A stretch of 64,000 nucleotides of DNA from Chrysiogenia bacterium (GCA_020434085.1 JAGRBM010000286.1:1246-65245), one strand, 5' to 3'; counted from the first letter of the stretch, positions 6,202 through 61,470 are shown. The notes: generated by a model from the letters alone, not told the origin. Made by a program: numbers and translations.

Positions 6202-6211
6202 GAAGGCTACT

Positions 6212-13820: not shown

Positions 13821-13828
13821 GGGGATTG

Positions 13829-14872: not shown

Positions 14873-14965
14873 GGGAGCGAGGATATCACGCCCCGCCCGG
14901 GACTGGGAATGCGCACAGAAAACCCCGCATGGAGCGGGGTTTTCTGGCCGCGACTGTCGGCGAGG

Positions 14966-15250: not shown

Positions 15251-15503
15251 GGGTCCTCCTTTGACCGTTGAAGATGGGGTGCAGACAAATGCCTGCCATT
15301 CGGCTCGACGTAGAATCGTCCGGATGGAAGCGCACTGGCGCTCAAGCGAATGTCTGGAAGTCAGGTGGTTGTGAAGCAATCTGGCATCATCACCCGCTAC
15401 GTTAACATCCCCGCAGCCGGGACCAAAACGCGCGGCAGTGCTGCCCTTATGCGCGGGTTCAGCGGTCATGCGAAAGCGCGCGCGGCCCGAAGGATATGGT
15501 TGC

Positions 15504-17138: not shown

Positions 17139-17180
17139 GGCTTTGCTTTCTCTCGCCCGAACCCCGCCCGCAAGCAGTTC

Positions 17181-17627: not shown

Positions 17628-17645
17628 GCTTTTGTTCCTCCTTTC

Positions 17646-18953
17646 CTAGAAGCTGAACTGCGCGCCGGCTTCGAAGAGATGGTTGCTCTCATCAAGCGGC
17701 GGACCCGCGTAGGGGGTAACAAAGGTAACGAATGCACCGATGGCCTCCGGCTGCGAATAGCGGTTGCCGTCGATGTAATGATAGGCCGTCTTGATGACAA
17801 AATGGGTATTGAACCAGTAGTTCAGCGCCACACCGTAGTCCACGTGACGGTCGATGGACTTTGGAAGCGCTGCAGCGAGCACGGGATTGTCGCTGATGTC
17901 ACCCTTGTAGTAATCGAGTCGGCCGGCAAGCTGCACGTGGTCGACGAACATGTAGGCAACTTCCAGATACGCTGCGGCAGTCTTATAGAACCTCTGTGCA
18001 TAGGTGTAGACGCCTTCGGTGCGGATCAGCAGATTGTCGCCCGCGTATTCAATGTGCGCGCCCACCGAACCACGCTCCGCATGCGTGACAAACGGGGGAA
18101 ACGTAAAGGTGTCACCCGATTTCAGGCCAAAGTAGCCCGAAGTACCGAAGCTCAGCCCCTCAATCGGCGTCGTCACGTGCAGTCGCCCGCCAAGAACATC
18201 CAGAAGAACCGTTTCCACAGTATTGGTGGGCGAGAGTTCCAGATCTGAAATCACCTGGCCACCGTACACATCATACTGCAGGCCCCAGTCGTCGGAGTAG
18301 ACATTGCCGGTAATGCCGCCGCCCTGGTAGGACTCGGCCACCACGGCCTGCGCGCCGTAAATACCCTGAGGCACGTCAAGGAAGGGACGGAGCGTGCCCA
18401 CATCGTAAATCTCGGTATAGATGCCGAAAGGCAACTTCACCTGCCCGGCACGGAGACGAAACGCGTCGCTGTAGTGCCATTCGGCGAAGGCATAGTCGAG
18501 TTCAATATCGCTCTCCGGGGACTTGGTGACCGTTCCCTGCGGCACCGCAACAGTGCAGCCGTTTGCCAGCGCTGGCGGGGGAACAGGAATCGCGGCGCAG
18601 GGCGGCGAGGCCAGCGGGAATGTGAATGTGTTCGTATCGAGCGTGCGCCCCTGCATGAGCGTCCAGTTGGCCTGGATCACCGCAGTAATGTCCTCGGTAG
18701 GCCGCGCGGACACGTTCAGCGATCCGGAGACGTTCGTATAGTTGCCCTCTTCATCGCCCTCGGCGTAGATGTAGCCTTCGTTGCTGGTGCGCTTGTAGGC
18801 CCAGCTTCCGTAGCCGTGTACCTGGACACTGTCGCCGATGCCTTCCGCCTTTGCGGCCCTGGGGCCGGCTACCAGACTCATTGCAATCGCCAAAAACATG
18901 ACGATGGCACCGGTTCGCCAGCGTTGTACTGTACTGATTCCCTGACCTCTCAT
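17646..18953 (-). CDS. Outer-membrane beta-barrel porin-like protein
   Basis: Signal peptide, alternating amphipathic beta-strand pattern, C-terminal ...GAQFSF (terminal Phe). Confidence 0.6.
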   Translation of the reverse strand: MRGQGISTVQRWRTGAIVMFLAIAMSLVAGPRAAKAEGIGDSVQVHGYGSWAYKRTSNEGYIYAEGDEEGNYTNVSGSLNVSARPTEDITAVIQANWTLMQGRTLDTNTFTFPLASPPCAAIPVPPPALANGCTVAVPQGTVTKSPESDIELDYAFAEWHYSDAFRLRAGQVKLPFGIYTEIYDVGTLRPFLDVPQGIYGAQAVVAESYQGGGITGNVYSDDWGLQYDVYGGQVISDLELSPTNTVETVLLDVLGGRLHVTTPIEGLSFGTSGYFGLKSGDTFTFPPFVTHAERGSVGAHIEYAGDNLLIRTEGVYTYAQRFYKTAAAYLEVAYMFVDHVQLAGRLDYYKGDISDNPVLAAALPKSIDRHVDYGVALNYWFNTHFVIKTAYHYIDGNRYSQPEAIGAFVTFVTPYAGPPLDESNHLFEAGAQFSF

Positions 18954-24312: not shown

Positions 24313-25590
24313 TCAGCCCTTCGCGGTTGCAATGGGGCCGCCCCAAACCGCCCGACGGTCCTGTTTTGCGAGCCATCGATTGATGATCGAGCCGACACCG
24401 CCGAAGATGTCATTGCCGAAGACGTCTCTCTCCCGCATCTCCATATCTTCGCTCAGTTCTCCAAGCCCCAGCAACGTGTAATCCCGGAAGCCTTCGTACT
24501 TTTCGGGCTCCAGCACGCGCACCCATCGGTTGAACAGGATGTTTGCGCCCATCAGAAACTCCGTACGTTCGAATGGGAGTTTGAACCCGGAGTTTTCTGC
24601 AAGGCGTGACACTTTCGAAAGAGTCTTTCCAAAGAAAGCAAATGTGTCGTATCCCAGCGTTTCGAACAGCGGTTTGAACTCAAGAATCAGCGGGGCGATT
24701 GGAACAAACATCATGGCGCGCGCCCACTTGTACCGTGCGCTGTGCGTAACATGGTGCGGAATATTGCCGAGCTTCGCGTAGGTCTGCGGGAACGCCGAAT
24801 GACGCGATTCGTCCATATGAAATCCTCGCATAATATGGCGCAGGCCTGGCTGGTTCTCGAGGAATCCGAAAATGCTCGTGGCGAATCCTTCCAGAACGAC
24901 ATTCATCCCGAACAGCTTGTGGTAATAATCCTTGCGAGCGATCGTCTCAAGCAGCGCCTTGCCGGCACCGCTCATCGGATAAATCCGGTCCAACGATTTG
25001 CACATTTCCCGCAGCGTGAAGAAGTGCTTGGCCTCTTCCATTACCTGCATTGCCATGCCGAGTTTTGCACCGGTGCCCTGGACCACCGGCATCAACGTCG
25101 CCGAGGTAAAGAGCGCGTATGCTTCGCCGTGGGTGATGAAGGATACAAGGCGCATCAGGGCTTCCCGCTGCTCTGGGCTGTGGGCCTCCTGAAACTCCCT
25201 TCGAACTTCCTCGGATGTGGCAATCCCAACCGACTCCTTGATTTCCTCGGTGAGGACCACGGGATCGAGACCGCTGGCCGCTGCAGTCACAGCGCCCCCT
25301 TTGCGGGCCACGTAGTCGGCCTTTGACGCATCGTGGATGTTCAGATACGGCGCAATCAGCTCCGCCTTCCAGATATGTGCAAGGGCCTTTTCATAGTTGC
25401 GCTGGGTAAGCAGTTCCATCTCCCCGCCATAGAAGGTCGCCGTGGTATCATCGTATCGATTGGCCATGTGCTTGGGATTGTCCGCCCATCGCCGGAACTG
25501 CGCATCCAAGAAGCGCTCATTCAGGACCTGGATACCCTGGATTCCGTATTTAAAAGCCGCGTCTGCTCGCTGTTGAGTCATGATTTCCAT
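24313..25590 (-). CDS. Ferritin-like diiron-carboxylate protein, paralog 1 (425 aa)
   Basis: Two E...ExxH sites (HGEAYALF...MEEAKHF; LEGFATSIF...MDESRHSAF); ATG at 25590 with a GAGGGA RBS. Confidence 0.7.
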   Translation of the reverse strand: MEIMTQQRADAAFKYGIQGIQVLNERFLDAQFRRWADNPKHMANRYDDTTATFYGGEMELLTQRNYEKALAHIWKAELIAPYLNIHDASKADYVARKGGAVTAAASGLDPVVLTEEIKESVGIATSEEVRREFQEAHSPEQREALMRLVSFITHGEAYALFTSATLMPVVQGTGAKLGMAMQVMEEAKHFFTLREMCKSLDRIYPMSGAGKALLETIARKDYYHKLFGMNVVLEGFATSIFGFLENQPGLRHIMRGFHMDESRHSAFPQTYAKLGNIPHHVTHSARYKWARAMMFVPIAPLILEFKPLFETLGYDTFAFFGKTLSKVSRLAENSGFKLPFERTEFLMGANILFNRWVRVLEPEKYEGFRDYTLLGLGELSEDMEMRERDVFGNDIFGGVGSIINRWLAKQDRRAVWGGPIATAKG

Positions 25591-25767
25591 AATTTCCCTC
25601 GTGCACAGATTTTTTTAGGTTTTATTGAAGTGGGGGGGCATCCGGATCTGCCCGCCGGAGCCCGACAGCCGTGTCGCACTCATGATCAAAACACTATTAC
25701 AAAACAGGCAATCAAGTCAAATAATTATTGCAACCCATTGATATTATTAACAAAAATAGTATAGTTA

Positions 25768-25796
25768 TTGCTATGCTTTAAAATGATGCTATAAAT
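25768..25796 (+). promoter_or_regulatory. Candidate sigma70-like promoter (TTGCTA-N16-TATAAAT) for diiron paralog 2
   Basis: Hexamers in an AT-rich divergent intergenic region, about 80 nt upstream of the ATG at 25879. Confidence 0.35.
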
Positions 25797-25878: not shown

Positions 25879-27018
25879 ATGAACATGGAACGATATCTGG
25901 AAGAAAAACGTGTATCTTATGGAAACTTCGACGGCATCGAATGGAATGACCTGACCGAGGTCAAGAAAATGCGGGAGTCGACCCGCATCACCACTCCCTT
26001 GGATATCAACTGGACTTGGGACTACGTCGGGCAGGTCGAGGAACTCCGTCGCCTCTATGATATATCGAAACGCCGCATGTGGGATGCGGAACGAGATCTG
26101 GACTGGAGCGAACCGATCGACCGCTCCAAACAGTGGGGCCAACACCCCAAGACCAGTCCCATAGCGCAACTCTTACAGATGCGCGGCGCCGGCGAGGACG
26201 AAATTCGAGAAGCGACCTGGGAGAGTTTTGAATATACGTGTTCGCAGTTGCTTCATGGCGAACAGGCTGCTCTTGAGATCTGCGGGCAGCTTACCGCTGC
26301 CTGTCCGGATGTCGACATGAAATTTTTTGCCGGATCGCAGGTTTTCGACGAAGTCCGCCATATGGAGGTCTTTGCGAAATTCCTGCAGCGAAAACTCGGT
26401 AAAATCCACCCTCTGGATCCCAATGTGAAATTCCTGCTCGAAGAAATCATGAAGGCCGATTGCTGGGAGAAGAAGACTCTCGGGATGCAGACGCTCTTTG
26501 AAGGAATGGCCCTCGGCGTAATGGATATGATGAAGAACGCGAGCGATGTCCCGCTCTTCGATGAACTGATCACCCGCGTAATCCTCGACGAATCGCGCCA
26601 CGCTGCATTCGGAATCATCTCGATGAAGAGGGTCATGGAATCGTGCGAAACATCGCCCGAGATGAAAGCCGATCTGGAGGATTGGGCCTTCAACATCCTC
26701 GAGTGCCTGAATGCAGGCCAGTACTATGGCGTCATATCCGCTTTGGGGCCGAAGTACGGCATCGATGCACACAATGTGTCGGCCATGATGTACGCCTCGA
26801 CCGACGCGCTTGAAGCCAAAAGTGTGATCTACACCCATGCCGTAATCCCCCACCTCAAAAAACTCGGCCTGATTACCGAACGCACTGAAGAAAAGTATCG
26901 CGATGCGGGATTGATCAAGGATATCACAAAGGTGGGGACCTACTCCGTCACTACGGAGAATGCCTGGGACCAAGCACCCGTGTTGCCGATGGCCAACTCC
27001 GTCGCGGCCAAAAACTGA
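25879..27018 (+). CDS. Ferritin-like diiron-carboxylate protein, paralog 2 (380 aa)
   Basis: LHGEQAAL...FDEVRHMEVF and EGMALGV...LDESRHAAFG diiron motifs; ATG at 25879. Confidence 0.7.
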   Translation: MNMERYLEEKRVSYGNFDGIEWNDLTEVKKMRESTRITTPLDINWTWDYVGQVEELRRLYDISKRRMWDAERDLDWSEPIDRSKQWGQHPKTSPIAQLLQMRGAGEDEIREATWESFEYTCSQLLHGEQAALEICGQLTAACPDVDMKFFAGSQVFDEVRHMEVFAKFLQRKLGKIHPLDPNVKFLLEEIMKADCWEKKTLGMQTLFEGMALGVMDMMKNASDVPLFDELITRVILDESRHAAFGIISMKRVMESCETSPEMKADLEDWAFNILECLNAGQYYGVISALGPKYGIDAHNVSAMMYASTDALEAKSVIYTHAVIPHLKKLGLITERTEEKYRDAGLIKDITKVGTYSVTTENAWDQAPVLPMANSVAAKN

Positions 27019-27182
27019 ACGGAAGGCACTGGAATATCCTGACAGCCGTTTACGGGGAGCACTGGTGGCTCCCCGTAAACGGCCTGCATGCGCCGCTGCC
27101 GTGGGAGTGACGAGTCCCTTTCCCGAAAAGCTCTTGCGACTTCGGAGAGCTTTCTGTTCTGCACAGCAACCAGAGGCCAACC

Positions 27183-36100: not shown

Positions 36101-36126
36101 TGTAATATAGCATTTGCTATATTACA
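36101..36126. promoter_or_regulatory. Perfect 12-bp inverted repeat TGTAATATAGCA-tt-TGCTATATTACA (candidate operator)
   Basis: Read directly in the 270-bp divergent intergenic region between diiron paralog 4 and the ACAD operon. Confidence 0.5.
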
Positions 36127-46023: not shown

Positions 46024-47466
46024 CTAGACGCTCGGCAGCTCCACCCAAAAGACCGAACCTTCTCCTGGTTCGCTCTCAACCCAAATGCGGCCGCCGTGCA
46101 TTTCGACAAATCTTTTAACAATCGAGAGCCCGAGCCCCGTGCTGAGTGCATTGCCGATCTTTTGGTTTTCGTGCTTGCGCCTGCGGGCAAGTGCCATAGG
46201 ATCAAAGAGAATGGCTTGCACTTCCGGGGGGATGCCGGTTCCGGAATCCCGCACGGCGATCCGCGCCCTACCTTCTGCCACCCGGGCCAACTCCATCGTG
46301 ATGGTACCTCCTTCGGGTGTGTGAATCACGGCATTCTGGACGAGATTTGTAAACGCCTGGACCAGTTTCGATCTGTCGGCGTAAAAAGCGGGATCGGCGC
46401 CGCAATCAACAAATTTGAGCCTGGTGTTCTTGAGCCTGGCATTGGCTGTCTGGGTTGCTTCGACGTCATGGACAAGGTCCCCGTATGAGAAATGGGAGCG
46501 CGAAAGGACGATTTTCCCCCCTTCCAGGCGGGCAGAATCCAGCAGATTCGAGATCAGTTCCAGCATTCTTTGACTTGCGCCATGAATTTCACGGGCATGG
46601 GTAAGAGCGCTCTCACGTGAGCCATCGAGTTCCATCACCAGGAGTTCGCTGTAGCCTCCCACGGATACGAGTATATTTTTGAGATCATGGGAGCACACGG
46701 CAAGCATTTCATTCTTTGTCTGCACGGCGGCCTCCGCCACCCGACGCCGCAGCTCTACTTCGTACGTAAGCAGACCGGCGCAAAACGCGGATCCATAGTT
46801 GATCATATGAGCTACCAGGAGGACTACAATTGGAAATGTCGGAATGCCATAAAATTCATAGGCCGGAAGCCGATGCCCCAGCAGGGGGGAATAGGGAAGA
46901 ACACCGAAATATTCCAAACTCACAATGAGGGCGTAGGCCCCGGAGCACATGGCCGCATACGCAAGACCCCAGAAAAAATTCAAAAACAGGCTGGCAAGCG
47001 TAACGAGCAAAGGATAGAAAACAACCACCACGCTGGTCAGAGAACCGAAGAGATGAATTGCAAAAGTTATAACGAAGACATCGAGAGCCGCAAGCACCGC
47101 GAAGATCGCTCTGGGCGCTACCCTGAAGAGAATGAGGACGATCAGGATCGCGTTTAGAAAGCTGTAGGCACCCGCGATCGGCAGGTAGTCGTAGAACATC
47201 GGCGCCAGCATGGCTGCCATCAGGAAAGAAGAGAGGATAACGATTCTGGCGAAGGCGGCACGGCGGTACCTCTGATAACCCTCGCGCTCGCCGCCAAACA
47301 AAAAGTAGGCATGCCCGAGAACCGAACGCAGTCGCCCGAGATATCTATCGTAGCGTGAGAGGTCCGCCCAGCGCTCAAGACGTCCGAGGTACCCCTCGAT
47401 ATCCTTTTCGAACTCGGCGAATTCGTCAGCTTTTGTGTCGCCTTGGGGCGTTTCCGGTGTCGGCAT
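46024..47466 (-). CDS. Sensor histidine kinase with a multi-TM N-terminal domain (no cognate response regulator nearby)
   Basis: H-box SHDLKNIL; G1 DSGTGIPPE; G2 GLGLSIVKRFVEMHGG; about 6 N-terminal TM helices. Confidence 0.85.
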   Translation of the reverse strand: MPTPETPQGDTKADEFAEFEKDIEGYLGRLERWADLSRYDRYLGRLRSVLGHAYFLFGGEREGYQRYRRAAFARIVILSSFLMAAMLAPMFYDYLPIAGAYSFLNAILIVLILFRVAPRAIFAVLAALDVFVITFAIHLFGSLTSVVVVFYPLLVTLASLFLNFFWGLAYAAMCSGAYALIVSLEYFGVLPYSPLLGHRLPAYEFYGIPTFPIVVLLVAHMINYGSAFCAGLLTYEVELRRRVAEAAVQTKNEMLAVCSHDLKNILVSVGGYSELLVMELDGSRESALTHAREIHGASQRMLELISNLLDSARLEGGKIVLSRSHFSYGDLVHDVEATQTANARLKNTRLKFVDCGADPAFYADRSKLVQAFTNLVQNAVIHTPEGGTITMELARVAEGRARIAVRDSGTGIPPEVQAILFDPMALARRRKHENQKIGNALSTGLGLSIVKRFVEMHGGRIWVESEPGEGSVFWVELPSV

Positions 47467-48547: not shown

Positions 48548-49045
48548 CTACGCGGCTGATCTACGGTCAATGTATTGTTGGGTCAAATCGGCTTCCCGGT
48601 CATACATGCCAGCCATGCGGGCCATGTAGAATCGCTCGACGGCTCGCCCCACCAGCCGGACTTCACACTCAAACGATCCCTTGAAACGCCGTATCGTCCC
48701 GCCCCGTCCGTCTGGCTCGTAGAGGGTTTTGCCGTTTAGTTTTCCGATCCGGGCTTCCCCCGAAACCGTCTCAATCATCGTCTCCTTATCGAGAACGTAA
48801 TTCATCTCAAAATAGGGTTCGCGATGCTTGAGGGCCCGTTCGATCCAGGCGGGCAAGTGCAGGTCCGGGTAAACTCGAACAATTTTGCGCCGCTGGGTTG
48901 GAGAGTCTTCGTAAACGAGGCGGTCAGATTGGCGAATTGTTCCCAGGTGCTCAATCAGATATCGGCGAAAGCCGCTATCGTCGATCCAATTGACCAACTC
49001 GATGGGGGGGAGGGGAAAACAGTGTCTGAATTCGAATTCCTGCAT
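48548..49045 (-). CDS. SRPBCC-like (DUF2505-type) protein, paralog of 13323..13820
   Basis: 165 aa; shared motifs with 13323..13820; 4-nt gap to the merR-like gene upstream. Confidence 0.5.
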   Translation of the reverse strand: MQEFEFRHCFPLPPIELVNWIDDSGFRRYLIEHLGTIRQSDRLVYEDSPTQRRKIVRVYPDLHLPAWIERALKHREPYFEMNYVLDKETMIETVSGEARIGKLNGKTLYEPDGRGGTIRRFKGSFECEVRLVGRAVERFYMARMAGMYDREADLTQQYIDRRSAA

Positions 49046-49049: not shown

Positions 49050-50531
49050 TCATTCCTGCGGCCATGCGCGCTGATAGGCGTATTGGCCGAAATTCGACGC
49101 TGGATCGCGGAGGATCACTTGCTGGAAGGCCTCGTTGGCCTGTTTTTTTTCCCTTTTGAGATCAAAGGCCTCTCCGAGATAAAAGTAGGTATTGACCCGG
49201 TATATCTCGTTGAATCCCTTGAATGGAAGCCCCAGTTGGGCTTCGGTGTGTGTATCGACGATTTCCAGAAGGTCTCTCAGCGCGCCGATTCCCTCGTCTA
49301 CCTGATTGAGAGGCGCCGGAAGAATCGTGTAGGCGCGTCCTTTCATGAGGAGGATTTCAAGACGGTCCTTGAGGCGCCGGGGCGTAAGTCGCAGGCTTTC
49401 CTGGAACAACTGGAGCGATTTATTTAGCCACTGGGCCGGTGAGATGACCCCACCCACCCGCGCGGCCTGCATTAAGTTGGCTATCGCGGCGTAGGCTGTG
49501 GTTCTCGCATCGTGGGGCGCGACTTTGTGCGCTTTGGCGGCCATCTGAACCGCCTCGTCCGTCCGATTAAGAAACGTATCGGCGACGGTTTTGAGTAGCA
49601 TCGCGTCGGAGTCATATTTGTCGTTTTTGAGTATCCGGGTGGCCTGTTCAGCACCCTCTTCGTAGCGCCCGATCGCGAGGTAAGCCTCGGCAAGTCGGAG
49701 CTGCAGATCACGTCTTTGCTTCGCGTCGCCGTCGCGCAGCTGGGTTTCGATCTCTTCAATCTGGGAGGGAATAGCGTGCTTTTCCAAAAATGCTTCACTG
49801 GGGATATAGATCTTCTTTCGCAGTTTTTCGACAGACAGCGGGCCTTCTTCATATGCGCGCTCGAAATGCAGCCGAAGAGCTCGTGTCTTCGCGGCTTCCA
49901 AAAATCGGTTAATGAGTGAATCGATTTCCCCCAACCGTCCCACTACTTCCCGGAAACTGGCGTCCCCGTCAATGGTGTGAATGAGGGCCTTGGATTCCTT
50001 GGTAACGACGGCTTCGATCGGGTTGAGAAGGTCAACGAAGAATTCGACGGGCAGTCCCTTGCTGTGAGCGGTCGAAACGATCCACGCGATTTTCCGTTCT
50101 TCGCCGGAGAGCGGCCCTTCGATGGCGCTGATGAGCCCGGCCTCCGCAAGGTATTTCTGCAAGTCCTCTGGTATTTCAACTTCGGCCGCGGGCTCCGTCG
50201 CCAGAACACCAACGCTGGGCGGAAGAAACCCTTTCCCCTCGGTTGCCCGCTCGAACATGTCAGCCACCAGGCTGAGTTCGAGCGCCTGGGCATCGTAGTT
50301 GCCCTGCTTGAAAAGCTGAGCGATGAAGGCCAGTGGGAGTTTCTTTTCCTTTTGTAGCTTGCGGACGAGTTCGAGAAGCTTGAGATGGTTTTCGTCGTAA
50401 AGGGCCAGTTTTTCGCGTACTTTGCGGGGCGGGGGCAGGATCCCCGCCCGCAAATAGTAGTGGATTGTTTTGCCGGCCACGCCCGCGGCATCTGCCAATT
50501 CTGAAAGTTTAAATTGTTTCTTTTTCGCCAT
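49050..50531 (-). CDS. MerR-family HTH transcriptional regulator fused to a long helical/TPR-like domain
   Basis: N-terminal FKLSELADAAGVAGKTIHYYLRAGIL MerR HTH; 493 aa, with alpha-helical repeats in the rest. Confidence 0.7.
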   Translation of the reverse strand: MAKKKQFKLSELADAAGVAGKTIHYYLRAGILPPPRKVREKLALYDENHLKLLELVRKLQKEKKLPLAFIAQLFKQGNYDAQALELSLVADMFERATEGKGFLPPSVGVLATEPAAEVEIPEDLQKYLAEAGLISAIEGPLSGEERKIAWIVSTAHSKGLPVEFFVDLLNPIEAVVTKESKALIHTIDGDASFREVVGRLGEIDSLINRFLEAAKTRALRLHFERAYEEGPLSVEKLRKKIYIPSEAFLEKHAIPSQIEEIETQLRDGDAKQRRDLQLRLAEAYLAIGRYEEGAEQATRILKNDKYDSDAMLLKTVADTFLNRTDEAVQMAAKAHKVAPHDARTTAYAAIANLMQAARVGGVISPAQWLNKSLQLFQESLRLTPRRLKDRLEILLMKGRAYTILPAPLNQVDEGIGALRDLLEIVDTHTEAQLGLPFKGFNEIYRVNTYFYLGEAFDLKREKKQANEAFQQVILRDPASNFGQYAYQRAWPQE

Positions 50532-50605
50532 GGCCTCAAAAATACCACGAGTTCAAATAGTTATGATGCGCGCCCGGTCCCTTGCCCCGTGCAGTATAAT
50601 CCAGC

Positions 50606-50638
50606 CCTTGACGGCGAATCAAGGATAGTGTTTACTAT
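50606..50638 (+). promoter_or_regulatory. MerR-type promoter: TTGACG -35 and TACTAT -10 with a 19-bp spacer, overlapped by the inverted repeat CCTTGA-N7-TCAAGG
   Basis: Read directly; lies between the divergent merR-like gene and diiron paralog 5. Confidence 0.5.
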
Positions 50639-50714
50639 ATTTGTAGTCGGATGGGCGTTTTCCGGGGTCTTTCCCGGAGTGCCTCAATGGATACGGAGCA
50701 AAGGAGCGACTCTT

Positions 50715-51647
50715 ATGGCGGAGCTAGTTCAAAGAGCAACTCGTGAGCAACTTACCAAGGTGGATGCCAGTGACAACATTTACAAGGTGGACCTGTGGCT
50801 CAAGACGGCACCGCAGGGCTATCTCGTCAAGACCCGTTACGGAAAATACGAGGACCGGCCAATCGAAGAGAATCCCCTCCTTTTTGAAGAAGGGGATCTG
50901 CGGGACCAGCAGCTGATGACCCTCGCTCATTTCGTGGTGGGGGAGCGGGCGGCCCTCCTCTCGGCAGCGGGCTGTATTCCCCGTGAGCCTGACCATGCGG
51001 CGCGGGCGTTTCTCTCGACCCAGACGGCTGATGAGGGGCGGCATGTGGAGGTCTTCTCCCAGCGCCTCTTCGACCTGGGGGTAACCAGGGAACAGTTTGA
51101 GGACTTTCTCGACAGCTGGACCAATCCCTATCTCAAAAAGTTTTGCCTTGCCCTCGAAGACCTCGTCAAGAATGGCGATTACGTCGCTGCCATCGTTTGC
51201 AACAATATCATTCTGGAGGGGCTCGCTTTCAGCGTCTTTGAGTTCTCCCGCGGGATAAGCCAATTCATGGATCCCGTTGGCGAGCAGGTGCTCTGCGGCG
51301 TCATCGCCGACGAGCGTCGGCACGTCGGTTTTGGGGAAAATCATCTTGCAAAACTCGTGGCCCGTTTTCCCGAAAGCAAGCGTAAAATCGAGAATGCCCA
51401 GAAGGAACTGTCCGGGTTCATGATGGCCAGCTTCAAGAGCATGCTCAGCAAGTTTGGATCAGTTATGAATCGGACGATCGGCGAATACAAAGAAGTTCTT
51501 GGCGATTTCGAGCCGTATCCGGGAATCAAGCTTGGTCGCTCGAACTCCGAAGATCTGATGGGCGCAATGTGGACCAAGATGGAGCGGGAGTTCAAAGACC
51601 GTCTCACCCGGATCGGCGTGGATTACCAAGAGCCGTACCAGAATTAG
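50715..51647 (+). CDS. Ferritin-like diiron-carboxylate protein, paralog 5 (310 aa)
   Basis: ATG at 50715 with an AAGGAG RBS; GERAAL...TADEGRHVEVF and EGLAFSV...ADERRHVGFG motifs. Confidence 0.7.
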   Translation: MAELVQRATREQLTKVDASDNIYKVDLWLKTAPQGYLVKTRYGKYEDRPIEENPLLFEEGDLRDQQLMTLAHFVVGERAALLSAAGCIPREPDHAARAFLSTQTADEGRHVEVFSQRLFDLGVTREQFEDFLDSWTNPYLKKFCLALEDLVKNGDYVAAIVCNNIILEGLAFSVFEFSRGISQFMDPVGEQVLCGVIADERRHVGFGENHLAKLVARFPESKRKIENAQKELSGFMMASFKSMLSKFGSVMNRTIGEYKEVLGDFEPYPGIKLGRSNSEDLMGAMWTKMEREFKDRLTRIGVDYQEPYQN

Positions 51648-51708: not shown

Positions 51709-53781
51709 ATGTCCCAGGATATCAGCACAAAAGCGCGGAGCCACAAGCACCCGCTGAAAATTGCGCCGCCTAAGAAGATCCCTGTCCATGTCGGCGAAGA
51801 CGCCGATGAGACCGTTACCTTGGAAGGCCTGGCCCCCCACGTTGAACTCCCCGAGGGACTGGCGTTCGATAAGTCGAAGTTTGATTCGGTTGGGACGGGA
51901 GCCGGCCATCCCCCCCTGAAGGTGCCTCCGCCGCCAAGGCCCAAGGCCGCCAAGCGTCCGCCCCTGTCTCCCCCGGCTGCCTCACCATCCGCTTCGGACA
52001 CAGCACATGACGGAGAAGAAGAGGTCATCATTGAGCAGCGTCGTCCGAAGGAAAAGAAGGTTGTAGGCGGTCGCCTGCAGAATCCAGACGCACTGGCCCG
52101 GCTGGAACCACCCGATTTCTCCGCAATTCCGCCGGATCCTGAGGTACACGTCCCCTCCAGACTCCGGGCAGATCCGCAGCGGCTCGTGGAAATTGCGCGT
52201 GTGCTATTCCGCCACGGCCTCGGGTTTCCCCTGGAATGCGTCCGGGGCAGGAACTCGCGCAAGGCCCTTGCCCGGCGGTTGCGCCTGGCTTTTGAAGAGC
52301 TGGGTCCGACCTTTATCAAGCTGGGGCAGATGGTGGCGTCGAGTCCCGGAATTTTCCCAAGGGAAGTATCCGATGAATTCCTCAAATGCCTCGATAAGGT
52401 CCCCGCGTTTCGGTTTTCGGAAGTAAAACGCATTCTTGGGGACGAGCTCGGACCCGGTTGGGAGGCCCGATTTCAGAAGATCGAGGCCGTTCCGGTTGCT
52501 GCCGCAAGCATCGCCCAGGTCCACTTCGCCGAATTGGCCGACGGCACGCCTGTCGTCATCAAAGTGCAGCGACCGGGCATTCAAAAGGTCATTGAGCGGG
52601 ATCTCGGAATTCTGTTTTTGCTGGCGAAAGGGCTTGTGCGTGCCTTCGAAAATGCCCATCTGGCCAATCCGGTGGGAATCGTCTCGGATTTCAATCAGAC
52701 GCTGCATGAGGAACTCGACTTCCGACTGGAAGCCAACAGCATGGAGCGGTTCAATGCGGTGTTTTCCTCTGCTGGAGACAAGCGCATCTATGCGGCCCAA
52801 GTGTACCGCGAACTTACCACGAAACGCATCTTGGTGATGGAGCGGCTACATGGCGCCCGGGTGGACGACCTCGATTCGATTCGAAATCTTGGTGTGGACC
52901 CTGAAGACGCTCTCCGCCTCGGAATCAAGGCAGTTCTTCGTACGATGATGTTGCATGGATTTTTCCATGGCGATGTGCATGCGGGCAATCTCCTCATCAC
53001 CGCAGATGCCGGCGTCCATTTCATGGATTTCGGAATCGTCGGCAGGCTCGACGACGAGCGAAGTAAACGCGTCACTCACCTTCTGGTTTCGCTCATGGCG
53101 GGCACTTTCGAGAACCTGGCCGACGTGCTCATGAAGCTGGGTACTACAAATGCAAAGACCGACCGGATTCAGCTGAAGGATGATCTGAAGAACCTGCTGG
53201 GACAGTTCAAGGACACGGCGCTTGGTGCGCTCAACTTCGGAGACCTGCTGACCGCCGTCGTCAAAGCAGCCGTACGGAACCATGTGCGCCTTCCGCGAGA
53301 GTTCGTTCTACTGGTGAAACAGATAGTTTACTTCGACCGCTACGCCCACGTTCTTGCTCCCGATCTGAATATATTCGACGACCGTTTCTTGATCGATTTC
53401 CTGTGGCGTGACCCGCTGGGTCGAAAACGATTTCCGCAGATGCAGATGATCGGCATGCTTGGAAATGTCCGCTCCATCAAGGATCTTCGCAATAATCGCC
53501 GGCGCTCTTTCGACGAGCTTCCGGAGCGGTACAGGGGGAAATACCGATACTGGGATGGCTCTCCCCTTCAGCCCAATGAGCTCCAGTGCGTTGTCTGCAA
53601 CATCATCGTGATTGCCAAACGCCCGTTTCAGGTCGGAGACAGGGTGTTCTGTCAACCCTGCGGCACCAAAATGGTGGTGATCGAGAAGGAAGGAAAACTC
53701 ACGGCCGAACCGATTTATTCCCAAGAAGCGCAGGCATCCTTCCGGATAACAGAGGGTTTGCAGGAATTCGCGCCGATCTGA
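51709..53781 (+). CDS. ABC1/UbiB (Coq8-like) kinase with a Pro-rich N-terminal extension and a C-terminal Cys-rich (zinc-ribbon-like) tail
   Basis: [35 protein letters not shown]1 motifs; C-terminal CVVCN...CQPCG. Confidence 0.8.
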
Positions 53782-53808: not shown

Positions 53809-54684
53809 ATGCTTGATCTGGAATCGCTGCTGGAGAAGTCCCACGCGGGTCAGTGGTCGGTCGCTGATTTCGATTGGGAAACGCCGTTTCCACCGGGGCT
53901 GCCGATCAGTGAGCGCAAGCGCCAGCTGCTGGGAAGAGTCCTGCTTTTCACTGCAGGGGTTGAACGTTTGGGCGCCTACGCATTTCAGATTAACGCCCGG
54001 AACTCGATGCACCCGACCGTCCGGGAGCTCTTCGAGGTCATCGCAAAAGATGAGTTCCGGCACGCGGAGGCTGAGACTCTTCTGGCGAGACGGCTGGGGG
54101 TCGAATGGAAAGATCTGCCGTGGCTCATGCGCCGGGCCTTCAAGGTGCTCTCGCACGACCTGCGGAAACTGAAGGGAGTACGAGGTCGCCTCTTCCACGA
54201 AATCGTGGGGACCCAGATCGTCCTGTTCGAACTTGGACTCGATTCGCTTTGGAGTCCGACGGTCCGGGAGATGATTGACGATCCGTTCCAGAACGAGATT
54301 ATCCGCATGATCGACCGCGATGAATCACGGCATCTGGCCATGGACTACTGGTTGCTCGAACAGAAGGGCACGGGTACTGACCGCACTTCGCTCAATGCGC
54401 GGCGAATTCTAGCCAACCTTCCCTTGCGCCTTTCGTCGGCAGCACTGGGAGCGGGCGCATTCCTGACGTTTTTCTGGAGTGTCCGGAACCTCGAAATCTC
54501 ACCCGAACGATTTGATGACTACTGGACTCGCGTACAGGCAATCGTCGACAAATCGCCGCACGCGCGCAGATTTCCGCCGCATCGCACGACGGTGGGTCTG
54601 ATAGACGCACTTGTGAACTTTTTCGACGGAAATAAGGCAGCATTCAAGGGATTTATGCTTCTGGTGACAGGACGAAATATTTAG
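53809..54684 (+). CDS. Ferritin-like diiron-carboxylate protein, paralog 6 (291 aa; group A)
   Basis: GQWSVADFDW; AKDEFRHAEAE; DRDESRHLAMDYWLL. Confidence 0.7.
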   Translation: MLDLESLLEKSHAGQWSVADFDWETPFPPGLPISERKRQLLGRVLLFTAGVERLGAYAFQINARNSMHPTVRELFEVIAKDEFRHAEAETLLARRLGVEWKDLPWLMRRAFKVLSHDLRKLKGVRGRLFHEIVGTQIVLFELGLDSLWSPTVREMIDDPFQNEIIRMIDRDESRHLAMDYWLLEQKGTGTDRTSLNARRILANLPLRLSSAALGAGAFLTFFWSVRNLEISPERFDDYWTRVQAIVDKSPHARRFPPHRTTVGLIDALVNFFDGNKAAFKGFMLLVTGRNI

Positions 54685-54693: not shown

Positions 54694-55431
54694 TTGTCCA
54701 TGCGTACCGACAGCGATCTTTACGCGATCAGGCCCGGGCAGGCGCTCGATGCCGCCATAAAGGGAATGAAAAATCCTGATGATACCAAGCAGGCTGCGCG
54801 GATGGTTGAGGCATTGCAGGGAAGATCTCCTCTGCGCATGCTTCAGCGCGTCAAGCGCAGCAGCAAGGGGCGCCGCCTGCTGCAGGAAAGGCCCGATCTG
54901 CTCTCGGCGCTCAAGGACGCCAAGTGGTTGGCTTCCCTGCCCGAGGGTACCTTGGGCCGTGAGTATTACGAGTTTTGCCAGCGCGAGCAGCTCACCCCCG
55001 GAGGACTGGATGAAGCCGTGGCCGAGGGGTTTGATCGTTCACGTCTGGAGCGCATGAGCGAGGACGAGCAGTTTCTGCAGACGTGGATGCGTGATACGCA
55101 CGACCTCTACCACGTGTTGACAGGTTACGGAACCGATCTGCTCGGAGAATTGGGCGTCCTGACCTTTACCGCGACACAGACCAGGAATCCGGCAATCTGG
55201 TTCATGGTGCTCGTAGGTGGAACGGTGTTTGCGGCCAGAGGGCATGCGAACCCGAGGCTGTTTGCGGGCGCAATCTGGCGGGGGCTCCGCGCGCGCTCGA
55301 TCATCACGCCGAATTGGAAGAGGCTTCTTGAACAGCCCTTGTCGCAGATTCGCCGGGAACTGCGCGTCCCCCAGCCCCCGCGATACAAACCGGCCTACAC
55401 AAGCCTGGACCGGTCGGCGATGCAGCTATAG
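54694..55431 (+). CDS. Coq4-family protein (ubiquinone-biosynthesis Coq4-like)
   Basis: HDLYHVLTGYGTDLLGE matches the Coq4 zinc motif HDxxH-x11-E. Confidence 0.65.
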   Translation: MSMRTDSDLYAIRPGQALDAAIKGMKNPDDTKQAARMVEALQGRSPLRMLQRVKRSSKGRRLLQERPDLLSALKDAKWLASLPEGTLGREYYEFCQREQLTPGGLDEAVAEGFDRSRLERMSEDEQFLQTWMRDTHDLYHVLTGYGTDLLGELGVLTFTATQTRNPAIWFMVLVGGTVFAARGHANPRLFAGAIWRGLRARSIITPNWKRLLEQPLSQIRRELRVPQPPRYKPAYTSLDRSAMQL

Positions 55432-56897: not shown

Positions 56898-58262
56898 TCA
56901 AAAACTCCAGCGCATTTCCGCGAACGCCGTCGTATTGTCTTCCAGAAAGCCGAATTGGGAGATGTTTTCGCCCTTGTAGATTTCTCCGCCGACCGTGGCC
57001 TTCCATTCATCCGTCAGGTCATAGGTCAGTTTGGGCCGGAGAAACCAGTTGGTTCTCTCGAAGTTGATGACATAGGTCAGATCGAGGTCGAGAGTATCGT
57101 TCCACCACTTCTTGTTGAATCGCACGGATACACCGTTTTGCCATGTGTCCAACTGACTTGTGAACAAGGCGTTGTATTGGGCCAACTGATCATCCGGGCG
57201 CCCCAACACCGTCTCGTACTTATGGAACACCCTTCTTCCATAGTACTGGACGATCAGGTTGGTGCTGTTCCCAAAGTCCTTTTCAATGCCAAGAACATAA
57301 AAAGCGTAGGGGGTTTGGATGTCCCTGCGCCGGCCTTTGGAATTCTTCGTATGAACGTACGCACCTTCCCCCCGAAACCCCCAGCTCCCGTGGATATACA
57401 CGAAATCCGCTCCCGCACCGTGTATACGGTGGTGCGAAAGTTCGACAACCGTCACCGGCGGAGGCGGGACGATCAGATTTACTTCCGGCAGTTTGTTGAA
57501 GCCCGTAAAATAGCTCACGGACCACTCAATATCTCCGCCGGACTGGTCCAGTTTGAAACCGAACTCGCCGTTTTCGATTTCCACATCCGGAGGCTGCTGC
57601 TGAAAGGATATTCCAGGAACCGAGGGAAGCGGAATCACGCTGGCTGTTGGCACCGGCTGCCAGACGCCTGTCACGCGGAAGCCCTTGGGAAGATAGTAGT
57701 CGGCTTTGACGCCGAAGACGCCGATTCGCTGATCGAAAGGGTCCGGAAAGAGAAGCGTCAGATTTCTCGCCGAGAGCCAGTCGGTGGGATTGATCTCATC
57801 GGCACGGCCCCAAACAATGATCTGCTTTCCGACCCGGAGTTCCAGGTCCCCGGCATAGACGTCGACATAGCCCTCGCGCAACTCCAACGTGACCTCTTCG
57901 TAGAGAGTCTGCGTTCGCCCATCCCAATGGTTTGGCGTGGTTGAGTGATTCAGGTCTTGCGCCATCACCCGAGCCTCGCCATAGAGCCTGACGTGATCGC
58001 CAAATCCGGGCTCCGACCTAAGAACAAGATTGAGGCCGGGAAAATGCCGATTCTTGGTTAGGGATTTGTCCGAACTAAAATAATCAAAAGCCGCATAACC
58101 GTGGATCCCTGCTTGCTTGACGGGGTTCCATAGTTTCATGAACGGGGTTTCACGGCCCTCTGGAATCGGACCCGGGCCGTCCTCTGCCGCTGCGGCGGTC
58201 GGGAGGGAGGCAAGAATGATTCCAAGAAAGAGCAGATTGCGAAAATGAAACGTCGTCCGCAT
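56898..58262 (-). CDS. Outer-membrane beta-barrel protein (DUF1302-like?) in the exporter operon
   Basis: Signal peptide MRTTFHFRNLLFLGIILASLPTAAAA; C-terminal ...EMRWSF; ATG at 58262 is 4 nt after the upstream stop. Confidence 0.55.
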   Translation of the reverse strand: MRTTFHFRNLLFLGIILASLPTAAAAEDGPGPIPEGRETPFMKLWNPVKQAGIHGYAAFDYFSSDKSLTKNRHFPGLNLVLRSEPGFGDHVRLYGEARVMAQDLNHSTTPNHWDGRTQTLYEEVTLELREGYVDVYAGDLELRVGKQIIVWGRADEINPTDWLSARNLTLLFPDPFDQRIGVFGVKADYYLPKGFRVTGVWQPVPTASVIPLPSVPGISFQQQPPDVEIENGEFGFKLDQSGGDIEWSVSYFTGFNKLPEVNLIVPPPPVTVVELSHHRIHGAGADFVYIHGSWGFRGEGAYVHTKNSKGRRRDIQTPYAFYVLGIEKDFGNSTNLIVQYYGRRVFHKYETVLGRPDDQLAQYNALFTSQLDTWQNGVSVRFNKKWWNDTLDLDLTYVINFERTNWFLRPKLTYDLTDEWKATVGGEIYKGENISQFGFLEDNTTAFAEMRWSF

Positions 58263-58266
58263 GTTT

Positions 58267-59106
58267 CTAGCGCTTGAGATAACGTTCGCTGAACGTGTAT
58301 TCCGGGACGCCCACATTTACCTTGATCTCATCGAAAGAAATTTCCGTGACTCCTCCTGTCTGCAAATTTTTCATTCGAAGCGACTTCGCCATCCAGCGAC
58401 CGAGCTTGGGGTCCGCCTCGAAAAGGTCGCTCGCGCCAAACTCTTTCAGAGGGCGCCCTGCAAGGTCGGCGTATTCACCTTTAACGGTCATGTAATTGTC
58501 AGTCCGGATCCACTGGATTTTCTTCCCGTAGCCGGTGTTGCGTTTTACTTCTTCCGACACAGGAGTGGACTCGACCACGTAACAATTGTGCTCGCCACAC
58601 GGCTCGGTCTTCACAAGCGTGTGATTCCAGTCCTCCACCCGCGGGGTGATCACGTCTCCGTAGGAGAAGTCCGATCCCATGAAACTGTCCCGCTTGTTCG
58701 ACGCTACCAGCCTCCGGACCTTTTTGAGGGCTGGAAGGTAAACCCAGATATCGTCGTCTCCTCCCGAGTGTTCCCGGGTCAGGGTCGCCGTGCCGCGCAC
58801 GTCCGGAGGGCTCAGGAATTTCGCCACGCGCTCCTGGTCGATCCCGTTGGGAAGGAGTCTGGAGAAGGACTCGGCTTTGCGCTCGCGCCGGATCCCCCTC
58901 GAATCAATGAGTACCATGGTCATTCTGGACTCGGAATCGGTGAGCTTTCCGACCATGAAGTTCTTCTTCATGATCTCGATGACGTCGGGTGGCCCGGCGC
59001 TTTCGACAGCTTCCTCCCCATGAGCCGGAAGACTCATGGAAACGGCAAACCCAATGCCGAGGACAATCATTACCGTTCTAAAATTATGCATTGCATACCT
59101 CCTCAT
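58267..59106 (-). CDS. LolA-like outer-membrane lipoprotein-sorting family protein
   Basis: Signal peptide; 279 aa; LolA-like fold signature (DIWVYLPALKKVRRL); GGAGG RBS before the ATG at 59106. Confidence 0.55.
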   Translation of the reverse strand: MRRYAMHNFRTVMIVLGIGFAVSMSLPAHGEEAVESAGPPDVIEIMKKNFMVGKLTDSESRMTMVLIDSRGIRRERKAESFSRLLPNGIDQERVAKFLSPPDVRGTATLTREHSGGDDDIWVYLPALKKVRRLVASNKRDSFMGSDFSYGDVITPRVEDWNHTLVKTEPCGEHNCYVVESTPVSEEVKRNTGYGKKIQWIRTDNYMTVKGEYADLAGRPLKEFGASDLFEADPKLGRWMAKSLRMKNLQTGGVTEISFDEIKVNVGVPEYTFSERYLKR

Positions 59107-59124
59107 AGCAGCAAGACCTCCGGT

Positions 59125-61470
59125 TTATTGGTCCTTCTGCGGTTTCAGAAAAAATGCCTTCGGCCGCACGTGTTTGATCAATGCCGGGAGAACCGTGATC
59201 GCTCCCAGGGAACTGATGACCATCGCCAACGCCACCAGAAGGCCCAATTTCCGGTGGAACCCAAACGGTGAGAGCGCCAGGCAGAGATAACCCGCGGTAA
59301 TCGCGCTGGACACAAAAAATACCGCCTTGCCCGAAGTGCGCATGGTGGTGAGCAGAGCTTCGTCGAAATTCTGATTCTTGCGGAGTTCCTCCTTAAGACG
59401 GAAGATAAAATAAAGGGCGTAATCAGCACCGATTCCCACAGCCATGGGCAGGATGGCCGAAGTTCCTATATCCAGATTGGCGCGGAAAAATCCCAGGGCC
59501 GCAAACTCCCCGAATACTGAAAGGATGAGCGGGACGGTTACAAGCAGGCCCGCGACGAGTGAACGCAGGACAAGCGAAGCCAGAACAACCACTATGAGCC
59601 AGATCTGGACGATGTTGCGGATCTTGCCTTCCACCATGACGTGGTTGAGCGCGTCGGCCGAGGCCACCGAGCCGGCGATCTTGACCTCATAGCCGGGCGG
59701 AAAATGCTTGGGGATGTAATCCCGTACTTTTCGAATGATCTCGTCAGCGACTGCCGTGTTGTCCTTCTTCATGAAGGTCTGGATGATCGCCTTATCATAG
59801 GTTTTGGTCACGTACGCATCAAAATCATCCGGTCCCCCGGAGATGGAATACAGAAAAAGGTATTGGGCAATGAGTTCCTGCGAGTCGGGAATTCTCTCGA
59901 ATTCGGGATCATCGGCATTCATCGCTTTGTTCATTTTCTTGAGGAAATCGACGATGGAGAGCGTCTTGCCGACGGCTTCCTGTTCTCCAAGGAGATCCTG
60001 CAGGCCCTCCATGCTCCTGAGAACTTCGGGGTTCTTGAGTTTATCTGGTTCCTTGCCGTCGATGACGAAGAGAAGATTGTTGGTTCCCGCAAACCGGTCA
60101 TTCAGCCAGGTGTCGTCTTGGTAAAACTGGTCCTTGGGGCTGAAATAGGGCTTGAGGCTGTTGTCTATCTTTACCATGGACGTGCCGTAGCCCCATGCGC
60201 CGAGGGCCACCACCGTCGCTCCAATGATGGCTTTGCTGCCGGAACCGCTTACATAGGGTGCAAGCCATTCGAGCGCCCCGTCGAGATATTTTCTTTCGAC
60301 CGACTCGGCCTGCGCCTCCTTTTGCTTCGGTGCGGGCAGCATCGCCCGCAGGGCCGGAATCATCGTCATTTCGATGACCAGGACCGAAAGAATGCCGAAA
60401 CCGGTGAAGAGCCCAAACGTGCGGATGGTCGTGGTCTGGAAGGTCATGAGCGAAAAAAAGGCGAGCGCGGCGATAATGCCCGTGGTCAGCATGACGGTTC
60501 CCACCTTGACGGTAGACTCGATCACCGCCTTGCGATTGTCCTGATAAACGGCATATTCCTCGTAATAGCGCTTGAGTATCTGAACGGCGTGCCCGGCTCC
60601 CACGGCCAGGATCAGAATGGGCGTGGTGGCGTTGAAGGGATCGAGAGCGACGCCCACGATCCCCATCAAGCCAAGTCCCCACACGACCGCCAGCAGGGCC
60701 GTCAACAACGGAAGAAACAACCCCTGGAGAGTGCGGAATGCCTCGAAATGAACAAGCCCGATAACGATGACGGCAATGATAAAATAGATGGCCATTCGTT
60801 CCGAGTATTTCGCCATCCACGATGCGGCCACTGGGAAACCCGAATAATGAATTTCTACCGAGTCATCCAGCTCGCTCTGCACGATTTCTTCAACCACCTT
60901 ATGGATCGAGGGAAAATCAGGCAGCTCCCGATTGAAGCGGAAATCGGCCAGAATCGCGGCCGTCTTCCCGTCCTTGGAATAGATCGAATTGGCAAACAGC
61001 GGATTCCGAAAGAGCTTATCCTTGAGTTCCTGCATCTCCCGTTCGGTAGCCGGCACTGTTTCCATGAACGGAGTCACAATCATCCCGTCTTCGGTCCCCA
61101 GAATATCCTTTGCCCGATTTGCGGAGATGGAAAGAACGTTGGCCCGGATGATTCCGGGAACCAGAAGTAGTTTGTCGGTAATTTGTTGGATTTTCTCAAG
61201 AACAATGGGCTGAAAAATATCGCCCTGCTTCGGTGCGATTCCAATCACTACAATGTTTTTCCCGCCAAAAATATCGTCGATTTCGTTTTGGGCCTGGATG
61301 TACGGGTGGCCCTGGGGAAGATTTTTGTCCGGGTCTACTTCGACATGGAGATTCCCGAGATTTGCACCCAGATAGACCGAAATCACGCCCAATATGACCA
61401 TCACTGCAACGCGATACCGGACAATCGCCTCAACATAGGATCGCAACATTATTGGTGCTCCTTTTTCCAA
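59125..61470 (-). CDS. RND-superfamily MMPL-type exporter
   Basis: 781 aa; two 6-TM bundles with large periplasmic loops; typical MMPL/RND-exporter layout. Confidence 0.85.
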   Translation of the reverse strand: MEKGAPIMLRSYVEAIVRYRVAVMVILGVISVYLGANLGNLHVEVDPDKNLPQGHPYIQAQNEIDDIFGGKNIVVIGIAPKQGDIFQPIVLEKIQQITDKLLLVPGIIRANVLSISANRAKDILGTEDGMIVTPFMETVPATEREMQELKDKLFRNPLFANSIYSKDGKTAAILADFRFNRELPDFPSIHKVVEEIVQSELDDSVEIHYSGFPVAASWMAKYSERMAIYFIIAVIVIGLVHFEAFRTLQGLFLPLLTALLAVVWGLGLMGIVGVALDPFNATTPILILAVGAGHAVQILKRYYEEYAVYQDNRKAVIESTVKVGTVMLTTGIIAALAFFSLMTFQTTTIRTFGLFTGFGILSVLVIEMTMIPALRAMLPAPKQKEAQAESVERKYLDGALEWLAPYVSGSGSKAIIGATVVALGAWGYGTSMVKIDNSLKPYFSPKDQFYQDDTWLNDRFAGTNNLLFVIDGKEPDKLKNPEVLRSMEGLQDLLGEQEAVGKTLSIVDFLKKMNKAMNADDPEFERIPDSQELIAQYLFLYSISGGPDDFDAYVTKTYDKAIIQTFMKKDNTAVADEIIRKVRDYIPKHFPPGYEVKIAGSVASADALNHVMVEGKIRNIVQIWLIVVVLASLVLRSLVAGLLVTVPLILSVFGEFAALGFFRANLDIGTSAILPMAVGIGADYALYFIFRLKEELRKNQNFDEALLTTMRTSGKAVFFVSSAITAGYLCLALSPFGFHRKLGLLVALAMVISSLGAITVLPALIKHVRPKAFFLKPQKDQ

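Follow-up and report, generated by a model that had tools for sequence, protein, structure and literature searches.

In canonical MerR regulation, the regulator binds a palindrome within the 19–20-bp spacer of its target promoter, with RNA polymerase alongside, and an induced kink aligns the -35 and -10 boxes (PMC9909328). The operator is a long palindrome lying in the spacer and centred between the two boxes (PMC9909328, PMC1526738), and a long dimerisation helix directly after the DNA-binding domain forms an antiparallel coiled coil (PMC9909328). In merOP, the promoters of regulator and target are divergent and partly overlapping (PMC11049809). The textbook MerR rules are thus a 19–20-bp spacer, a mid-spacer palindrome and a rigid coiled-coil dimer, with activation by DNA distortion. 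Other described regulators combine related parts in different ways. CarH, CarA and LitR are light-controlled repressors in which a MerR-type DNA-binding domain is tethered to a B12-binding sensor, and the CarH operator consists of tandem direct repeats. RNPP receptors (PlcR, PrgX, NprR, ComR/Rgg) are signal receptors that join an HTH to TPR repeats, which also occur in MalT domain III and the Rap proteins. HspR, a MerR-family repressor with an inverted repeat over promoter elements, recognises the HAIR operator of chaperone genes, whose consensus is CTTGAGT-N7-ACTCAAG, i.e. CTTGA-N11-TCAAG.

Here we analyse a window of 64,000 nucleotides of DNA from a Chrysiogenia bacterium, in which a MerR-type regulator gene and a diiron operon diverge from a 183-bp intergenic region. 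The regulator gene (49050–50531, minus strand) encodes a protein of 493 aa, here called MerR-TPR. The plus-strand operon begins with a ferritin-like diiron protein of 310 aa (50715–51647; best solved relative 6d9f, a VlmB homologue, E 3.8e-17), whose ATG at 50715 has AAAGGAG immediately 5′ of it. It continues with a UbiB/ABC1 kinase-like protein of 690 aa (51709–53781), a second EXXH protein (53809–54684) and a Coq4-like protein (54694–55431), and ends with a cytochrome P450 (55527–56699), all on the plus strand. Judged by what is preserved in related loci, the control region between the MerR-TPR gene and this iron-oxygenase operon is real and evolutionarily conserved. Positions 50593–50641 would form a control region shared by a pair of sigma-70-type promoters that diverge and overlap. 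Of these, P_diiron (TTGACG, 19 bp, TACTAT) is predicted to drive the diiron/UbiB-like/Coq4-like/P450 operon, and P_R (TTGATT, 18 bp, TATACT, minus strand) is predicted to drive an operon encoding MerR-TPR, a DUF2505 protein, a metallo-beta-lactamase-fold protein and a histidine kinase.

The preliminary description of this DNA had assigned the divergent gene to a MerR HTH fused to roughly 400 residues of helical or TPR-like structure, and both profiles and model bear this out. PF13411 (MerR_1) matches residues 8–76 with 51 bits, where the cut-off is 21.6 (E 1.3e-13), several TPR matches follow, and profile matches reach the solved MerR-family members 2dg6, 4ua1, CadR, CueR and MerR. By these matches, the DNA-binding domain makes MerR-TPR a MerR superfamily member. 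NCBIfam also gave a weak match to HspR (E 0.0016); a dedicated model for MerR-TPR was found neither there nor in Pfam. The AlphaFold model, built on a shallow alignment of 21 sequences, has a mean pLDDT of 81.7. It places a winged helix-turn-helix at residues 9–76 (helix-turn-helix, beta wing, two helices), a 17-residue helix at 81–97 with confidence falling from 89, helices at 122–239, one of them 47 residues long, and TPR-like helical repeats at 246–489, the domain that the preliminary description had proposed to examine by structure prediction. Residues 89–114 are a low-confidence segment of variable length among homologues and in the model probably form a flexible linker; the low confidence there may also be a mere effect of the 21-sequence alignment. 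A long coiled-coil dimerisation helix is not evident in this monomer model with its shallow alignment, and the C-terminal part contains none of the known MerR ligand-binding domains (metal loop, GyrI-like, TipAS, B12). The architecture is indeed unusual for the family: the literature searched yielded no characterised MerR-TPR example. The TPR domain could serve as the signal sensor, perhaps, as the preliminary description had proposed, for a lipid.

Like MerR/PmerT of Tn501, CueR/PcopA, ZntR, SoxR/PsoxS, BmrR and EcmrR, MerR-TPR carries an N-terminal MerR winged helix-turn-helix, but its model lacks the long coiled-coil helix of those activators, and some 400 residues of helices and TPR repeats stand in place of a metal, redox or drug-binding domain. 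With CarH, CarA and LitR it shares a MerR-like domain and, as the model suggests, a linker, which leads to a large C-terminal part by which oligomerisation might be governed. As modelled, its shape is closer to that of tethered repressors, CarH among them, than to the rigid coiled-coil activators (PMC9909328). A CarH/LitR identity is nevertheless excluded by the missing B12 domain, Pfam and NCBIfam scans having found no B12-binding family in MerR-TPR, and the locus departs from CarH in having an inverted dyad and a 19-bp-spacer promoter. MerR-TPR also contains a TPR domain, as RNPP receptors do, in which an XRE-type HTH is joined to a peptide-binding TPR domain. RNPP identity is excluded in turn because the HTH is MerR-type, not XRE- or LuxR-type; further differences from RNPP systems are that no signalling-peptide gene is evident and that the hosts belong to Gram-negative lineages.

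We turn to the operon promoter. The preliminary description had proposed a MerR-type promoter with a 19-bp spacer, and its two hexamers can be read directly from the plus strand as TTGACG (50608–50613) and TACTAT (50633–50638), separated by 19 bp (50614–50632). P_diiron has the style of a classic MerR target, in that its -35 is perfect, its -10 is mediocre and its spacer falls within the MerR-type range of 19–20 bp; canonical MerR activators likewise combine a near-consensus -35 with a weak -10 and a 19-bp spacer at their targets. The pattern TTGACn-19-TAnnnT arose on the plus strand in 0.2% of shuffles of the 183-bp intergenic region, and the full 31-bp pattern occurs once in the window, where 0 matches are expected. 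An alternative -10, TATATT (50636–50641), fits TAnnnT at its position in 9 of 10 related loci; it lies 22 bp from TTGACA, is accompanied by no other -35, and counts as a reservation only. A scan of 50300–50900 against Rfam for riboswitch or leader RNA gave nothing meaningful.

Relatives of the regulator are numerous. Among representatives at 50% identity, 57 clusters match at E<1e-30, and the full-length relatives, each about 500 aa long, number more than 100. Close homologues number 21. Of the loci fetched around these relatives, ten independent ones share a block: that of the window (equivalent to L001), L004, L005, L009, L010, L011, L014, L015, L017 and L020. The regulators of these ten loci span 100% to 45% identity and several phyla, with labelled hosts including Chrysiogenetes and Bdellovibrionota. 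The block lies upstream of the regulator gene on the strand opposite to it and reads TTGAC(A/G), a spacer of 19 bases, and TACTAT with at most one base changed, L020 being the exception. TTGAC is invariant (10/10), the spacing is 19 in all nine loci with a TACT-type -10, and within the spacer the 5′ part varies among loci and the 3′ part, CAAGGATAGTGTT, is kept. With the same spacing recurring across relatives, the earlier reading of a 19-bp-spacer promoter that points at the plus-strand diiron operon is upheld. In seven loci the corresponding site is the best or sole promoter-like site on its strand, and no alternative promoter with a 16–18-bp spacer on the operon strand was common to all ten loci. 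Between the block and the regulator start codon lie 36 to 354 nt, depending on the locus.

What the block accompanies is the regulator. The MerR-TPR gene is the sole gene common to all ten loci, and the gene downstream of the block encodes the 310-aa diiron protein in six loci, a 434-aa EXXH protein unrelated to it in three, and a DUF3604 protein in one. Because these three downstream genes are unrelated, the block travels with the regulator gene and not with the target gene, as expected for a regulator's own operator-promoter. A chance resemblance lacking regulatory function has next to no probability in our estimate: the inverted repeat that overlaps the -35 is, alone, not significant, but the 31-bp block is free of indels in ten loci from different phyla whose flanks are unalignable, which refutes chance as its origin.

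In the three loci with the 434-aa gene (L004, L010, L017), a leader hairpin, GCAAAACGAT-GTTCT-ATCGTTTTGC, lies about 10–40 nt downstream of the -10; the window lacks it. Two other loci, L011 (1791–2085) and L014 (3647–4001), have 300–350 nt between the promoter block and the MerR-TPR start codon. There, the DNA directly upstream of the start is alike in the two, and the small ORFs it contains (81 and 73 aa) are dissimilar.

Which part of the block is the operator? The preliminary description had pointed to the inverted repeat CCTTGA-N7-TCAAGG (50606–50624), a perfect 6-bp repeat with a 7-base loop, and it is indeed present and overlaps the -35. Its claim to be the conserved operator did not hold. 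In the relatives, 2–5 of its 6 pairs are kept (mean 3.5 over the ten loci), essentially TTG/CAA. When the 183-bp intergenic region was shuffled, 28% of the shuffles contained a perfect inverted repeat with arms of 6 bp or more and a loop of 3–12, so that the repeat is not significant in itself, and an exact and 2-mismatch search of the window found no second copy, with counts at chance level. The repeat is superficially like the CTTGA...TCAAG of HspR, a fellow member of the MerR family, but the arrangement here is CTTGA-N7-TCAAG against CTTGA-N11-TCAAG in HAIR, and the repeat is not conserved. HspR identity is excluded, there being no HAIR and no chaperone genes; the neighbours are oxygenase and lipid-metabolism genes.

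The remnant symmetry of this repeat has a simpler source in the regulator's own promoter. P_R consists of a -35 box TTGATT (50617–50622) and a -10 box TATACT (50593–50598), both on the minus strand, with an 18-bp spacer. TTGnnn is found at the P_R -35 position in L004, L010 and L015 as well, the conserved plus-strand ATA block of the relatives corresponds to the TATnnT box of P_R, and the P_R spacing drifts among loci (16 bp in L009). The -35 boxes of P_diiron and P_R oppose each other with 9 bases between them, and two -35 boxes that face each other automatically make TTG...CAA an inverted repeat, which by coincidence is six pairs long in the genome studied here. We therefore regard as very unlikely the model of the preliminary description, in which the regulator binds CCTTGA-N7-TCAAGG over the -35 and activates by canonical MerR distortion. 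In its favour, the repeat is perfect here, keeps 4–5 of 6 pairs in L010, L011, L015 and L017, and accompanies a 19-bp spacer that is real. Against it, only 2 of 6 pairs survive in three loci, the surviving TTG/CAA is accounted for by the opposed -35 boxes, the centre of the repeat (50615) is displaced upstream from the canonical MerR dyad position by 6 bp, or roughly half a turn, and conservation of the block is strongest downstream of the repeat.

The conserved symmetry lies further downstream. Counting from the first T of TTGAC (window position 50608) as position 1, we scored every possible symmetry centre over the ten sites. Invariant or near-invariant positions are TTGAC (1–5), A10, A14-A15-G16, A18, T19, A20-G21-T22, T24, T26-A27-C28-T29 and T34. 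Dyad symmetry peaks at position 24.5, where 63% of pairs are complementary, compared with 47% at position 8, the centre of CCTTGA-N7-TCAAGG. At the canonical MerR centre (positions 13.5–14.5), the ten aligned sites have no palindrome above background (21–32% paired). In the window, the peak corresponds to the dyad AGGATAGT-GTTT-ACTATATT (50622–50641, centre 50631.5), whose core is ATAG (50625–50628) and CTAT (50635–50638), or ATAG-N6-CTAT, and whose family form is AGnATAGT-N4-ACTATnCT. Nine loci keep 6–8 of its 10 pairs; in L020 the core has a 5-base centre, with the right arm shifted by one base and the distance from TTGAC to ATAG unchanged. That distance is 17 nt, and the register of -35 to dyad is fixed in 10 of 10 loci.

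Because its right arm is the -10 box itself, TACTAT would serve both as promoter element and as half-site. The third and fourth positions of the hexamer, C and T, are both non-consensus and each is kept in 9 of 10 loci, which implies a constraint beyond -10 function, as for an operator half-site. Like the operators of canonical MerR activators, the site is dyad-symmetric with half-sites about one turn apart; unlike them, it has its centre about 10 bp further downstream, over the -10 and not in the spacer. The long palindrome inside the spacer that typifies canonical MerR operators is absent here, the symmetry peaking at the junction of spacer and -10. Its left half-site occupies what we take, from alignment with the Tn501 mer promoter, to be the place of the downstream half-site in canonical MerR operators. 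MerR-TPR most likely recognises the dyad at 50622–50641 and not CCTTGA-N7-TCAAGG.

The association between dyad and regulator reaches into distant subfamilies. ATAG-N6-CTAT adjoins MerR-TPR genes that are only 38–42% identical (L007, L022, L024), and L013 has ATAG-N6-CTAC; the proteins of all four keep the recognition-helix motif KTIHYY. P0021 has EMIKYY in its place, and its locus has no ATAG-N6-CTAT-type site. L022 and L024 each have a promoter-like site, TATACA-17-TATACT, with a pair of dyads over its two hexamers, which by its layout is the classical arrangement of a repressor, and in L007 the core sits inside a perfect 17-6-17 palindrome. The gammaproteobacterial MerR-TPR loci L006, L007, L008 and L013 have large ACTATAGT-rich palindromes just upstream of their own -35 box, in a geometry unlike that of the window site. 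The ACTATAGT-type palindromes of L006 and L008 fit no single model, and they are left out of the mechanism. In L025 (1–162), an orthologous locus whose regulator is 59% identical, the site has decayed to AAGGATAACACAACTAG, and TTGACA is missing.

This association bears on who binds the block. It might instead be a promoter plus the operator of some other transcription factor, or serve only to autoregulate the regulator operon, with MerR-TPR acting elsewhere. The dyad does lie just upstream of the P_R -35, and its centre falls at about -45 from the predicted P_R start, a position that would permit activation of P_R. A different factor is hard to reconcile with the MerR-TPR gene as the sole gene shared by the ten loci, or with the core dyad co-occurring with the conserved recognition helix in distant subfamilies, and we consider this explanation unlikely.

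The divergence of the regulator gene from the diiron operon, noted at the outset by the preliminary description, is confirmed by the MerR-TPR ORF on the minus strand, and the promoters overlap as well. As in merOP, the regulator promoter is divergent and partly overlaps the target promoter, running from 50622 down to 50593 on the minus strand, an arrangement of gene and promoters shared with the canonical MerR activators. The DUF2505 gene (48548–49045, minus strand) starts 4 nt past the regulator stop codon. The same regulator–DUF2505 order is found in L001, L014, L015 and L016, and DUF2505 is absent from L017 and L020. Sequence searches with the DUF2505 protein returned no informative solved relative; a role as co-sensor would be speculative. 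The last gene of the regulator operon encodes a membrane histidine kinase (HisKA plus HATPase_c; 46024–47466, minus strand), with no response regulator nearby, and the order MerR-TPR, DUF2505, metallo-beta-lactamase fold, kinase is kept in L014–L016. MerR-TPR is the sole DNA-binding regulator detected between 19 and 57 kb.

How might MerR-TPR act from this site? Our favoured view, to which we give about an even chance, is that it represses P_diiron from the dyad that overlaps the -10 and that a signal relieves the repression. The half-sites are one helical turn apart and the right arm is identical to the -10 hexamer; a dimer on this dyad, or a larger oligomer formed through the helical/TPR part, would stop RNA polymerase from opening P_diiron, a promoter already handicapped by its 19-bp spacer. 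A signal at the C-terminal TPR region, perhaps a peptide, another protein or a small hydrophobic compound, would then relax or remodel the complex and so induce the operon. Repression is favoured because the right half-site covers -11A and -7T, the bases that sigma flips out, so that a block of open-complex formation is expected. Here the candidate operator lies over core promoter elements and its action would probably be repressive, as with CarH, CarA and LitR; the tethered-domain look of the MerR-TPR model and the layout of L022 and L024 are consistent with repression. What speaks against a plain repressor is the strict preservation of the 19-bp spacing and of the 17-nt TTGAC–ATAG register, kept even in L020. 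A plain repressor has no need of a frozen spacing and register, and MerR-style activation therefore stays a serious rival.

That rival is a dual control through the same dyad, possible in our judgement but doubtful, in which regulator and RNA polymerase would occupy the 19-bp-spacer promoter together. The complex would be locked without signal; with signal, the DNA would be untwisted or kinked at the dyad centre (50630–50633), just upstream of the -10, either bringing -35 and -10 into register or helping melting, and the right half-site would be released. The constancy of spacing in nine loci and of the -35-to-dyad register in ten is what such a mechanism would demand, and a 1–2-bp deletion, which would improve both promoters, has never occurred, yet the P_R spacing drifts. 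The MerR wHTH in the protein, the possibility of 19-bp spacers at two further sites (S2 and S3, below) and a left half-site at what is presumably the canonical place of the downstream half-site, by the Tn501 mer alignment, also speak for it, as do divergent and overlapping promoters of regulator and target like those of mer (PMC11049809). Several observations weigh the other way. The right half-site lies over the very bases that sigma must flip out, whereas in solved MerR-family activation complexes the palindrome is inside the spacer (PMC9909328). The register of -35 to dyad differs by 3 bp between the main site and S2/S3, which a face-specific mechanism would not tolerate. Finally, the model has no long dimerisation helix and a linker that is probably flexible, and the spacer in L022 and L024 is 17 bp.

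The two further sites came from a position weight matrix of positions 14–34, built with the window site left out. The main site (50622–50641) scores 31.6 bits. S2, ATAGT-TATT-GCTAT (25757–25777), scores 16.1 bits and lies in an AT-rich divergent region between a gene for a 425-aa EXXH (diiron-like) protein (24313–25590, minus strand) and an AurF-like gene (25879–27018, plus strand); the 425-aa protein is 52% identical to the product of the MerR-TPR neighbour in L017 (Bdellovibrionota-type loci). S3 is a perfect 12-2-12 palindrome, TGTAATATAGCA-TT-TGCTATATTACA (36101–36126), that holds the ATAG-N6-CTAT core, and scores 14.4 bits (36103–36123); in 38 kb there is just one other perfect repeat that is long. 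It lies between an AurF-like gene (minus strand) and an acyl-CoA dehydrogenase gene (36285, plus strand). The start listed for this AurF-like ORF, 36099, would leave no room for a promoter; the ATG at 36015, with GAGGT 5′ of it, looks like the real start. Best scores in shuffled windows were 8–15 bits, and once 20.6, a range that includes S2 and S3. Their scores alone are thus marginal, and the candidacy of both sites owes more to context, the diiron paralogs beside them, than to score. Possible plus-strand promoters are TTAACA-19-TATGCT at S2 and TCAACA-19-TATATT at S3, with -35 boxes assigned post hoc, and at both sites TATnnT directly follows the C of CTAT, 3 bp closer to the dyad than at the main site. 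Given this context, MerR-TPR probably also controls diiron-gene promoters at S2 and S3. A matrix scan of the related loci (about 9 kb each) for extra operator sites found only the one adjacent to the regulator. Directly after the AurF-like gene that ends at 27018, a perfect 16-bp GC-rich hairpin with a 7-nt loop (27045–27083) is probably a terminator.

Taken together, MerR-TPR proteins form a sizeable, uncharacterised subfamily in which the spacer rule of the MerR textbook is strictly kept and the other two, mid-spacer palindrome and rigid coiled-coil dimer, appear to be broken. Should they act as plain repressors, some other reason for the conserved 19-bp spacing has to be sought; should they activate, they must do so by a mechanism unlike that of CueR, BmrR and EcmrR in their solved complexes. 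In both cases the purpose of the long spacer comes into clearer view. A bolder proposal, which we think rather improbable, would make MerR-TPR a distinct MerR class: the 19-bp spacer is kept, the regulator docks one turn downstream with a half-site on the -10, and activation proceeds by untwisting at the -12/-11 melting point in place of mid-spacer re-phasing. The TPR domain would then be signalled through a partner, for example DUF2505 as a lipid-binding co-sensor, and the regulon would comprise at least three diiron-oxygenase operons in a cluster for degradation of a lipid or steroid-like compound.

The ATAG-N6-CTAT motif and the three candidate promoters offer a handle on the regulation of this cluster, and therefore on its inducer and substrate; the cluster so opened, with its diiron oxygenases, Baeyer-Villiger-type monooxygenases and UbiB/Coq4-like proteins, is unstudied. 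The gene content at 19989–45536 and 56898–61470 suggests that the cluster encodes the catabolism of a lipid, an isoprenoid or a steroid-like substance. Its oxidation genes encode three FMO/Baeyer-Villiger-type monooxygenases, four acyl-CoA dehydrogenases, an aldehyde dehydrogenase and an SDR. Also present are a PF10118 hydrolase, an acyl-CoA ligase, a thiolase-like protein with a ChsH2-type OB-fold protein, a 3beta-HSD-like epimerase and a second ABC1 kinase. GC content falls near 18 kb, from 0.60–0.66 (1–18000) to about 0.55 (18000–62000), a step that could be the boundary of a genomic island or a metagenome mis-join. The transport genes of the cluster encode an MMPL transporter with a sterol-sensing domain, together with LolA-like and DUF1302 proteins.
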